Shown here: piece by piece, positions 52,946 to 53,632 of the stretch
Numbering within the stretch: the stretch's first letter is position 1
Layout of the letters: every line of letters starts with the position of its first letter
NCBI RefSeq assembly: GCF_044324875.1
Contig: NZ_CP172185.1
DNA length: 64,000 nt
Reading direction: 5' to 3' (one strand)
Source: Escherichia coli
GTDB taxonomy: Bacteria > Pseudomonadota > Gammaproteobacteria > Enterobacterales > Enterobacteriaceae
Made by a program: the position numbers and the translations under genes
Notes under the pieces: generated by a model
Told to the model about the DNA's origin: nothing
Seen by the model: the letters and a program-made list of their open reading frames with translations, nothing else
Databases searched by the model: none

Positions 52946-53632
52946 TTAATGCAACGGTTCACCCTTTGTCGCCACGGCTAATGGGCGAATTTTGTCACGG
53001 GTATCCCAGACCGGAGGGATTTCATCCAATTTAGTGACAGAAGCTCGTACAAAAGGCACCCGTGCAATAGTCATAATCGTATTCAACCAACGGTCACGAA
53101 TAATGCGATCTGCCCTTTCATGACTCGGATCATCCAGCTCAATAACACAGACTATTTTGTTGTTCTTCTTTGAAACCAGAACATAATCCATTGCCATTCC
53201 ATTATAAATTGCAAAGAAACGCTTTCTTTCTTCTTCGCTAAACTCGGGTTGTTCTGGAAAGTTGATCAAGCGCCCCAGAGAGACCTGGCAATGGATATGA
53301 CAATAATGTCCAAACCATTTCTCCAGATTATCAAAATAGATTTTTTCACAACGCGTAATTAACCACTCTTTTCCTTCCAATAAAATACCTTCGGCAACCA
53401 TTCCCTGAAATAACTCATCTCGTTCTTGCCAACGAGAGTCACGATAGGTTTTCTGCGGTGTATAGCTCCTTGTCGACGCCTTAGCAGCAGGGGAAGTTGC
53501 AGAGGAAGGGACTGGTTGCGATTTAGTGATGATTACCGATGAGGCAACTTTTCGGAGTGTCAATTTTCTGGCAACAGCAAAACCGGCGACAAATGCAATT
53601 GTCAAACAAGTTACAAAAACCATAAAGCTCAT
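52946..53632 (-). CDS. Membrane-anchored hypothetical protein, possibly DUF2726-like (nuclease-related fold)
   Basis: 228-aa ORF with N-terminal hydrophobic helix and C-terminal VLVSKKNNKIVCVIELDDPSH pattern; family call from memory. Confidence 0.4.
   Translation of the reverse strand: MSFMVFVTCLTIAFVAGFAVARKLTLRKVASSVIITKSQPVPSSATSPAAKASTRSYTPQKTYRDSRWQERDELFQGMVAEGILLEGKEWLITRCEKIYFDNLEKWFGHYCHIHCQVSLGRLINFPEQPEFSEEERKRFFAIYNGMAMDYVLVSKKNNKIVCVIELDDPSHERADRIIRDRWLNTIMTIARVPFVRASVTKLDEIPPVWDTRDKIRPLAVATKGEPLH

Follow-up and report, generated by a model that had tools for sequence, protein, structure and literature searches.

What is the function of a lone gene that stands next to phoH, just after the repeats following the tRNA-Ser gene serX, in a minority of Escherichia coli chromosomes? 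The question is raised by a stretch of 64,000 nucleotides of E. coli DNA (assembly GCF_044324875.1, contig NZ_CP172185.1), hereafter the window, in which an earlier note had singled out a membrane-anchored, nuclease-like orphan. The list of open reading frames (ORFs) of the window holds an ATG-initiated frame of 228 amino acids (aa) at exactly the coordinates given there, 52946-53632 on the minus strand, and, judged from its sequence, this is a real gene and not a chance reading frame. It very probably represents a stand-alone accessory gene for a membrane-tethered enzyme of the PD-(D/E)XK type whose catalytic domain faces the cytoplasm. An attack on incoming DNA is put forward here, tentatively, as its possible role.

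52946..53632, minus strand: coding sequence of the DUF2726 protein, identical to RefSeq WP_001305896.1 of strain FDAARGOS_1290

The relation to DUF2726 had been proposed with reserve, to be given up should a profile search fail. The search was positive: on residues 90-205 Pfam DUF2726 (PF10881) scores 66.9 bits, the cut-off being 24.7 (E=1.8e-18), over profile positions 3-116 of 126. The parts of the protein referred to below are encoded as follows.

53018..53365, minus strand: DUF2726 / PD-(D/E)XK domain, codons 90-205
53345-53347: codon of the family-invariant residue E96
53186-53188: codon of the family-invariant residue D149
53138-53140: codon of the family-invariant residue E165
53129-53131: codon of the family-invariant residue D168
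53120-53122: codon of the family-invariant residue H171
53423..53548, minus strand: Ser/Thr/Pro/Ala-rich linker, codons 29-70, varying in sequence and length among homologues; modelled with pLDDT (see below) <50 over residues 28-56

A profile search of 1.84 billion representatives recovered 5568 members of the DUF2726 family at E<=0.001, and conservation was counted in an alignment of 136 of the best family representatives. Six residues, E96, D149, E165, D168, H171 and D180, are unchanged in 135-136 of the 136, and R176 and R179 are kept in 133. The resulting family pattern, MDYVLV...VIELDDxSH...R..RD, is the variant of the Vsr/DUF559 type, with Asp in place of the canonical Lys, the Lys position being occupied by D/N167 and followed by the invariant D168 and H171. 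An AlphaFold model built on a 17-sequence alignment (mean predicted local distance difference test, pLDDT, 77.7) shows a helix at residues 3-31, a disordered linker at about residues 28-64 (pLDDT <50) and a confident alpha/beta domain at residues 70-220 (pLDDT ~80-97). This domain has the alpha-beta-beta-beta-alpha-beta core fold that characterizes PD-(D/E)XK enzymes, together with the catalytic acids D149 and E165 and the helix-1 Glu, E96. The domain is thus predicted from the model to be a Vsr/DUF559-like PD-(D/E)XK nuclease, and its residues make it likely that the enzyme is active; the description as nuclease-like is in this sense well supported. Searches of PDB sequences, with the single query in phmmer and with the 17-sequence profile in hmmsearch, gave no meaningful match, and the link to Vsr and DUF559 draws on structural similarity, motif resemblance and published grouping. 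DUF2726 has been assigned to the PD-(D/E)XK superfamily and listed with Vsr and DUF559 (Steczkiewicz et al. 2012, PMC3424549), and it has been described as a DNase of the restriction-endonuclease fold fused to AbiJ N-terminal domains (Anantharaman et al. 2013, PMC3710099). The 228-aa protein had no match in the NCBIfam scan and one in PHROGs, to a family without assigned function. A further conserved segment, SRWxxRDELFxGM (residues 66-78), is common to the enterobacterial subfamily.

The second element of the architecture is the membrane anchor.

53570..53626, minus strand: single N-terminal transmembrane helix FMVFVTCLTIAFVAGFAVA, codons 3-21

The transmembrane helix that had been noticed at the N-terminus is the sole strong hydropathy peak of the protein, with a Kyte-Doolittle 19-residue maximum of 2.43 at residues 3-21 and every other window at or below 1.6, and it lies within the helix modelled by AlphaFold. 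It is directly trailed by RK..RK. An N-terminal helix is also found in 118 of 150 family representatives and at 51 of 58 genomic loci, the anchored members spanning Proteobacteria, Verrucomicrobia, Planctomycetes, Saccharibacteria and Firmicutes. In 124 helix-bearing relatives Lys and Arg together average 4.03 over the 15 residues that follow the helix, compared with 0.27 ahead of it, and the C-terminal flank is the more basic one in 120. Because positive charge clusters C-terminal of the helix, the positive-inside rule predicts an N-terminus outside the cell and a cytoplasmic nuclease domain. A membrane anchor with a cytoplasm-facing catalytic domain is, by the same sequence-based prediction, the norm for the DUF2726 family. 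A cleavable signal peptide was considered for the hydrophobic segment and rejected on the charge distribution.

The distribution of the gene in E. coli answers the question of whether it belongs to the core genome.

52939..54175: DUF2726 cassette of 1237 bp, standing where K-12 has a 10.9-kb pgaD...ycdU block

A survey of presence and absence across E. coli genomes had been proposed earlier as a check. The gene was found in 1049 of 5426 complete E. coli genomes, as a single copy of 95-100% identity; in 1043 of the 1049 carriers a single place accounts for 80% or more of its length. It is accordingly an accessory gene of about 19% of E. coli and not the universally conserved core gene that had been considered as the alternative. 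The order of genes in K-12 is phoH-pgaDCBA-dgcT-IS3-ymdE-ycdU-serX-ghrA, and that in strain FDAARGOS_1290, which has no island, is ghrA, tRNA-Ser (serX), DUF2726, phoH and efeB. In pairwise BLAST the homology of the window with K-12 ends at 54176, just past the phoH terminator, and restarts at 52938, in the repeats 3' of serX. The cassette between these points has a GC content of 42.9% and a third-position GC content (GC3) of 38.9%, compared with 51.8% and 51.5% in phoH. The phoH-pgaD-pgaC junction was found at >=80% coverage in 4379 genomes. Since 4379 together with 1043-1049 amounts to nearly all of the 5426 genomes, the pga block and the DUF2726 gene look like mutually exclusive alternatives of the phoH-serX interval, an exclusivity read from complementary totals (4379 + 1043 vs 5426) and not from a per-genome cross-tabulation. 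In the retrieved passages of Cimdins et al. 2017 (PMC5635171), pga-negative E. coli are described that carry neither ycdT nor pga nor the insertion sequence (IS) between phoH and serX, and these passages make no mention of a DUF2726 gene. IS1 insertions split the gene in a few E. coli strains, which indicates that natural loss of function does occasionally occur. A plasmid-borne location was rejected, as the sole near-identical "plasmid" matches are records of 0.7-4.9 Mb that are evidently chromosomes.

The association with phoH extends beyond E. coli. An orthologue of 88% identity, aligned over residues 1-228, is found in E. albertii in the order phoH-DUF2726-ghrA, another of 94% identity lies beside phoH in a cryptic Escherichia, and that of Salmonella enterica (72% aa identity) stands in the order putA-putP-phoH-DUF2726, its 90%-identity cluster also taking in proteins of the Citrobacter freundii complex. 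The word orphan is therefore apt for a solitary gene but not in the sense of an ORFan, given these phoH-linked orthologues and thousands of family members. Between E. coli and Salmonella the nucleotide identity of the DUF2726 gene, 79.1%, nearly equals that of the adjacent phoH, 79.2%, and for this reason the sequences fit a long residence beside phoH better than a recent import. Comparison of E. coli alleles gives a ratio of non-synonymous to synonymous substitution rates (dN/dS) of 0.25-0.27. The ratio also stays well below 1 in the comparison with the Salmonella orthologue, for which dN is 0.17 while dS has reached saturation. The four E. coli copies that were examined (that of the window and three others) and the Salmonella gene all have a full-length frame, and by these sequence measures the gene is under purifying selection. 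Salmonella has been argued to have lost pga (Echeverz et al. 2017, PMC5464674); in some Salmonella the DUF2726 gene occupies the place vacated by pga.

The signals from which the gene may be expressed lie within the cassette.

53642..53647, minus strand: Shine-Dalgarno sequence AGGTGA, 9 nt 5' of the ATG
53633..54175: AT-rich, cassette-specific upstream region, presumed promoter/regulatory sequence
53875..53903, minus strand: best sigma-70-like promoter match, TTGACT-17-TATATT, 10/12, by consensus match only
53744-53771: second sigma-70-like promoter candidate
54179..54205, minus strand: strong phoH intrinsic terminator with an 11-bp stem (7 GC pairs) and a T-run
54219..55283, minus strand: phoH, the core-gene neighbour (RefSeq start 55007, 262 aa)

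The efeB, phoH and DUF2726 genes, the repeats and a P4-type integrase gene follow one another in this order in the window, all on the minus strand, and the phoH terminator separates phoH transcription from the DUF2726 gene. The AT-rich non-coding DNA before phoH, estimated earlier at about 580 bp, measures 586 bp up to the phoH stop codon (53633-54218; 39.1% GC) and is 5' of the DUF2726 gene and 3' of phoH. Its GC content falls to 29.5% at 53700-53899, the window mean being 50.1%, and its largest ORFs reach only 41-46 aa. No Rfam RNA element and no RefSeq feature were found within this spacer, and the AT-rich upstream region is absent from K-12 and shows no conservation with Salmonella. Antisense to the 3' end of phoH (54224-54400, plus strand) there is a strong match to the Yersinia small RNA Ysr251 (Rfam RF02855; 168.8 bits against a 100-bit cut-off), which runs off the edge of the searched region.

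Homologues of the same architecture, with 37-60% identity, occur in five recurring settings. In a family of integrative and conjugative elements (ICEs), found in E. coli, Dickeya, two Pectobacterium species and one further host, the gene occupies a fixed slot in the order DUF1525-TraU-...-TraG_N-(small membrane ORF)-...-DUF2726, followed by about 1 kb, the integrase and ArdC/DUF1281/RadC. The small membrane protein of these elements (126-139 aa) is conserved and is encoded on the opposite strand directly after TraG_N, and it may plausibly serve in entry exclusion. Between its gene and the DUF2726 gene is a variable spot, in which different toxin-antitoxin pairs (MazE-PIN, PemK-MazE) are found. 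In Citrobacter, Enterobacter, Klebsiella aerogenes, Pantoea, Rahnella and Salmonella Chester, the gene is embedded in the core operon of a type VI secretion system (T6SS), PAAR-TssM-TssA-DUF2726-TssF-TssG-TssJ-VgrG, in which the intergenic gaps measure 17-27 bp. The divergence of the embedded copy parallels that of its cluster (82% and 66% identity, compared with 80% and 59% for TssA and 97% and 85% for TssF). Many database entries start this T6SS-embedded protein so as to give a length of 145-150 aa, by which the membrane helix is cut off. An Erwinia homologue follows Rhs-core fragments and stands immediately 5' of a VgrG-DUF2169-PAAR-like toxin module. Filamentous phages of Vibrio (Tubulavirales) carry DUF2726 genes as cargo, in one case (locus coordinates 5794-6435) directly after the pI/pIV morphogenesis genes and in a second inovirus at locus coordinates 1554-2222; the two copies that were translated both have the helix and ELDDxSH. 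The conjugative MOBF plasmid pLD91-1-76kb holds two copies near TraG_N, and more distant members of the family have been found beside mcr-1 on IncX4/IncI2 plasmids (PMC12915395). Outside these settings, a close relative of 60% identity is a lone gene after hrpA.

In a rough neighbour-joining (NJ) tree without support values, the phoH-linked clade is sister to the T6SS-embedded one, and the Salmonella orthologue adjoins T6SS genes (Hcp, ImpA_N/VasL) across an IS. The gene of the window itself lies in no T6SS cluster, a location found in the sister clade of paralogues; its neighbours are phoH, the repeats and the integrase gene. No neighbour is common to the ICE, T6SS and orphan contexts, and a tblastn search of 52500-54300, for which the ORFs ahead of the homologues in ICEs, Erwinia and T6SS operons served as queries, revealed no partner remnant (best E=0.37). 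A conserved adjacent partner, as expected of toxin-antitoxin or effector-immunity pairs, was likewise not found.

A mechanism may be proposed from these elements. The protein is strongly predicted to expose a very short N-terminus on the outer side of the membrane, to cross the membrane through the helix at residues 3-21 and, by way of a flexible linker of about 45 residues, to present the DUF2726 domain to the cytoplasm, with E96, D149, E165-L-D-D168, H171 and R176/R179/D180 as an intact, family-invariant catalytic set. It would then act as a Mg2+-dependent endonuclease. The tether would hold this endonuclease at the inner face of the cytoplasmic membrane and off the nucleoid, its substrates being limited to nucleic acid arriving at the membrane or passing through it, for example phage DNA on injection or the single-stranded DNA of conjugation and of filamentous phages, and the outcome would be exclusion or defence by location. 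The carriage of DUF2726 genes by elements that move DNA across the membrane suggests such a role in excluding or degrading incoming DNA. By analogy, a membrane-confined nuclease acting on incoming nucleic acid may be the best overall explanation, one to which somewhat less than even confidence is attached.

Several observations weigh against this role. In the searched literature there is no biochemical or genetic study of any DUF2726 protein, the genes of the family appearing there only through incidental transposon-screen phenotypes in Avibacterium and Pseudomonas putida, and queries by RefSeq accession, Pfam accession and "membrane-anchored nuclease" returned nothing on this gene. PADLOC-DB 2.0 contains no family matching the 228-aa protein at E<=1, and none matching the T6SS, ICE and inovirus relatives at E<=0.001. 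The surroundings of 52 distant relatives show no defence-island signal and no conserved partner: among 182 neighbour ORFs no Pfam family recurs more than twice, most neighbours are housekeeping genes, and toxin-antitoxin and integrase genes are merely scattered. The stable embedding of the closest paralogues in a T6SS core operon is not predicted by a pure anti-DNA model. Furthermore, Vsr-type enzymes are specialised nickases rather than bulk DNases, the 228-aa protein has no extra DNA- or phage-binding domain such as the DUF4041 of SNIPE, a phage-defence nuclease described below, and the AT-rich upstream region might keep the gene silenced under laboratory conditions. A broader version, in which DUF2726 is a large overlooked family of inner-membrane-tethered nucleases that destroy nucleic acid on entry, as an independent second instance of the SNIPE principle, is rather doubtful; it covers >5000 clusters at 50% identity, most of the examined relatives being anchored with the N-terminus out and all having the invariant active site. 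If it were true, ICEs, conjugative plasmids and inoviruses would use DUF2726 nucleases for exclusion, some T6SS operons would have recruited them, and the phoH-linked copy would give the ~19% of E. coli that are without pga a distinct susceptibility to phages and plasmids.

The main rival to a nuclease acting on incoming nucleic acid is a function in secretion machines, in which the protein would be an accessory part of T6SSs, or of the type IV secretion systems of ICEs, at the cytoplasmic face of the inner membrane, with a part, for instance, in their assembly or regulation or in the handling of nucleic acid that goes with firing or mating, and the phoH-linked gene of E. coli would be the orphaned survivor of a former T6SS locus between serX and phoH. 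The tight placement and co-divergence of the nearest paralogue clade within the T6SS core operon, the sister relationship of the phoH-linked clade in the NJ tree, the T6SS genes across the IS from the Salmonella orthologue and the VgrG module next to the Erwinia homologue all speak for it. However, the E. coli gene has long been under purifying selection with no T6SS gene adjacent, most members in other phyla are solitary and stand beside housekeeping genes, and the invariant catalytic residues favour an enzyme over a scaffold; moreover, the tree lacks support values and a link between DUF2726 and T6SSs was not found in the searched literature, so that this explanation is considered unlikely. 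The same solitary, housekeeping-like contexts of distant relatives would suit a physiological role, for instance that of a membrane-tethered ribonuclease comparable to RNase Y, itself an N-terminally anchored membrane ribonuclease, and engaged in RNA processing or decay at the membrane. This is improbable for a family that is accessory and found on mobile elements and whose motif D...E-x-D-D-x-x-H...R..RD is of the Vsr/DUF559 type (PMC3424549).

The remaining alternatives have very little probability each. A nuclease fold encoded on mobile elements, toxin-antitoxin pairs nearby in two ICEs and the Erwinia copy between Rhs-core fragments and a VgrG-effector module could point to an addiction-module toxin, or to a T6SS-delivered effector with the helix as targeting element. 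Yet no context offers a conserved adjacent immunity or antitoxin gene, the 586-bp spacer holds no remnant of one, linkage to PAAR, MIX, Rhs or chaperone genes is missing, and the gene is stable on its own in >1000 E. coli genomes, all of which makes a toxin very improbable. Export to the periplasm or medium is equally improbable: it would require the hydrophobic stretch to be a cleavable Sec signal peptide ending at A-V-A (residues 19-21), and an AxA-like motif does close the hydrophobic run, just as membrane-bound extracellular nucleases, such as competence nucleases, do exist. The hydrophobic core is, however, preceded by no basic n-region and immediately followed by four Lys/Arg, a charge arrangement that disfavours export and recurs in 120 of 124 relatives, and SNIPE, of the same layout, has been found by experiment to have a cytoplasmic C-terminus. 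Finally, the low GC content of the gene in an AT-rich, possibly silenced region, the IS1 interruptions and the existence of truncated database entries could describe a decaying relic without current function, a mere marker of the pga-deleted haplotype. The low dN/dS within E. coli, the dN of 0.17 against Salmonella at saturated dS, the intact frames in E. coli and Salmonella, the full alignment of the E. albertii protein and the retention of every catalytic-type residue make decay a most unlikely account.

The position of the gene relative to the island that fills most of the window also calls for a correction. It had been placed at the junction of core and island, next to att-like repeats.

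52658..52938, plus strand: ~1.5 RtT-type repeat units of ~181 bp after serX, with an Rfam RtT match

The gene does stand between these repeats and phoH, but it is outside the integrase island, in a 1.24-kb cassette of its own, the island junction lying near 52657, to the left of the repeats. That the gene might be cargo of the neighbouring P4-like integrase island was rejected, because it is present between serX and phoH in the island-free FDAARGOS_1290. The repeats are mostly native RtT-type units (Rfam RF00391 at 52716-52852, 46.3 bits against a 45-bit cut-off), 98% identical to the ~181-bp units 3' of serX in K-12; their number is ~3.5 in K-12 (K-12 locus coordinates 16962-17584), ~1.5 in the window and one in some strains. 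Each unit opens with a copy of the tRNA-Ser 3' end (...ccctcaccgcca), which is why the units resemble att sites and why the integrase element presumably sits at one of them. The units would offer multiple pseudo-attB sites to a P4-type integrase element. As ARAGORN found no intact tRNA in the window, the island or array of islands would measure at least 52 kb, with the intact serX past its far side. This puts the integrase gene (51289-52497, minus strand) at the end away from the tRNA gene, an unusual arrangement for islands that target tRNA genes and perhaps a sign of tandem elements.

A P4-like satellite-type module adjoins the integrase gene (42914-52497). The DUF3987 gene of this module (47336-48421) looks truncated beside its longer, intact counterpart in strain NT1N34 and is directly followed by an IS21-type element (istA 48750-50396, istB 50170-51168); the module's 607-aa (44687-46510) and 187-aa (42914-43477) proteins had no match in Pfam or PADLOC. 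The island also carries a raffinose-utilisation cluster (30139-39841).

38831-39841: LacI-type regulator
36611-38737: alpha-galactosidase
35279-36571: LacY-type permease
33852-35282: GH32 invertase
30139-31635: LamB-type porin

Further to the left are a type I restriction-modification locus (13387-24009), interrupted by IS3-family copies, and a reverse transcriptase (RT) gene. Among the four IS3-type ORFs only that at 688-1578 was domain-scanned (rve domains), and the best PADLOC matches of the RVT_1 protein are generic RT and group-II-intron/homing-endonuclease-type models, with no specific defence-associated RT (DRT) or retron.

13387-16404: HsdR
16419-17582: DUF4268 / PADLOC candidate PDC-S11 gene
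18925-19575 (plus strand) and 20797-21543 (minus strand): specificity-subunit fragments on opposite strands
21550-24009: HsdM
688-1578, 10333-11223, 17647-18537 and 19904-20794: repeated 296-aa IS3-family transposase-type ORFs
25208-26302, minus strand: 364-aa reverse transcriptase (RVT_1)

As a family member the protein is ordinary, and the gene is already catalogued in RefSeq as "DUF2726 domain-containing protein". It shares with Pfam DUF2726 the invariant E...D...E-L-D-D-x-x-H...R..RD and the usual N-terminal helix, and nothing sets it apart beyond the additional SRWxxRDELFxGM segment and the fixed position beside phoH. What is new is the context, namely the alternation with pga, the family-wide tether with an invariant active site and the repeated occurrence in ICEs, T6SS operons and inoviruses. 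E. coli strains differ naturally in whether they carry the gene, a clean polymorphism confined to one gene and the counterpart of the pga biofilm locus. The family to which it belongs is very widespread, and its near-universal tether and invariant catalytic residues are indicative of an enzyme at work on the inner membrane.

Among known systems, the likeness to Vsr and DUF559 (PDB 1cw0, 3hrl) was seen in fold comparison, without a sequence-level match; Vsr is a soluble cytoplasmic repair enzyme for T/G mismatches, whereas the 228-aa protein is accessory and predicted to be membrane-tethered. The RAP domains of FASTK and mitoribosomal proteins (PDB 9g6k, 9gek) share with it the minimal fold only, at 6-11% identity; they form part of large soluble proteins and are RNA-associated domains of eukaryotic organelles. 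A parallel in layout is SNIPE, which has a membrane helix with the N-terminus out and a cytoplasmic nuclease, cuts lambda DNA while it is being injected and, once deprived of the helix, is toxic to its host, its activity, topology and associations with phage and host proteins being backed by experiment (Saxton et al. 2025, bioRxiv 10.1101/2025.11.03.685801). Both are single proteins with a short outside N-terminus, one helix and a cytoplasmic nuclease, an arrangement that is predicted for the 228-aa protein from hydropathy and positive-inside bias. The two are not homologous, since SNIPE combines DUF4041 with a C-terminal GIY-YIG domain, neither of which was found in the PD-(D/E)XK protein described here, whose only Pfam domain is DUF2726. 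By analogy, it is plausible that discrimination between self and non-self by location is common to both. If incoming DNA is indeed the target, the carriage of DUF2726 genes by ICEs, conjugative plasmids, filamentous phages and some T6SS clusters would be explained, and the "defence by location" of SNIPE would be extended to a different nuclease fold.

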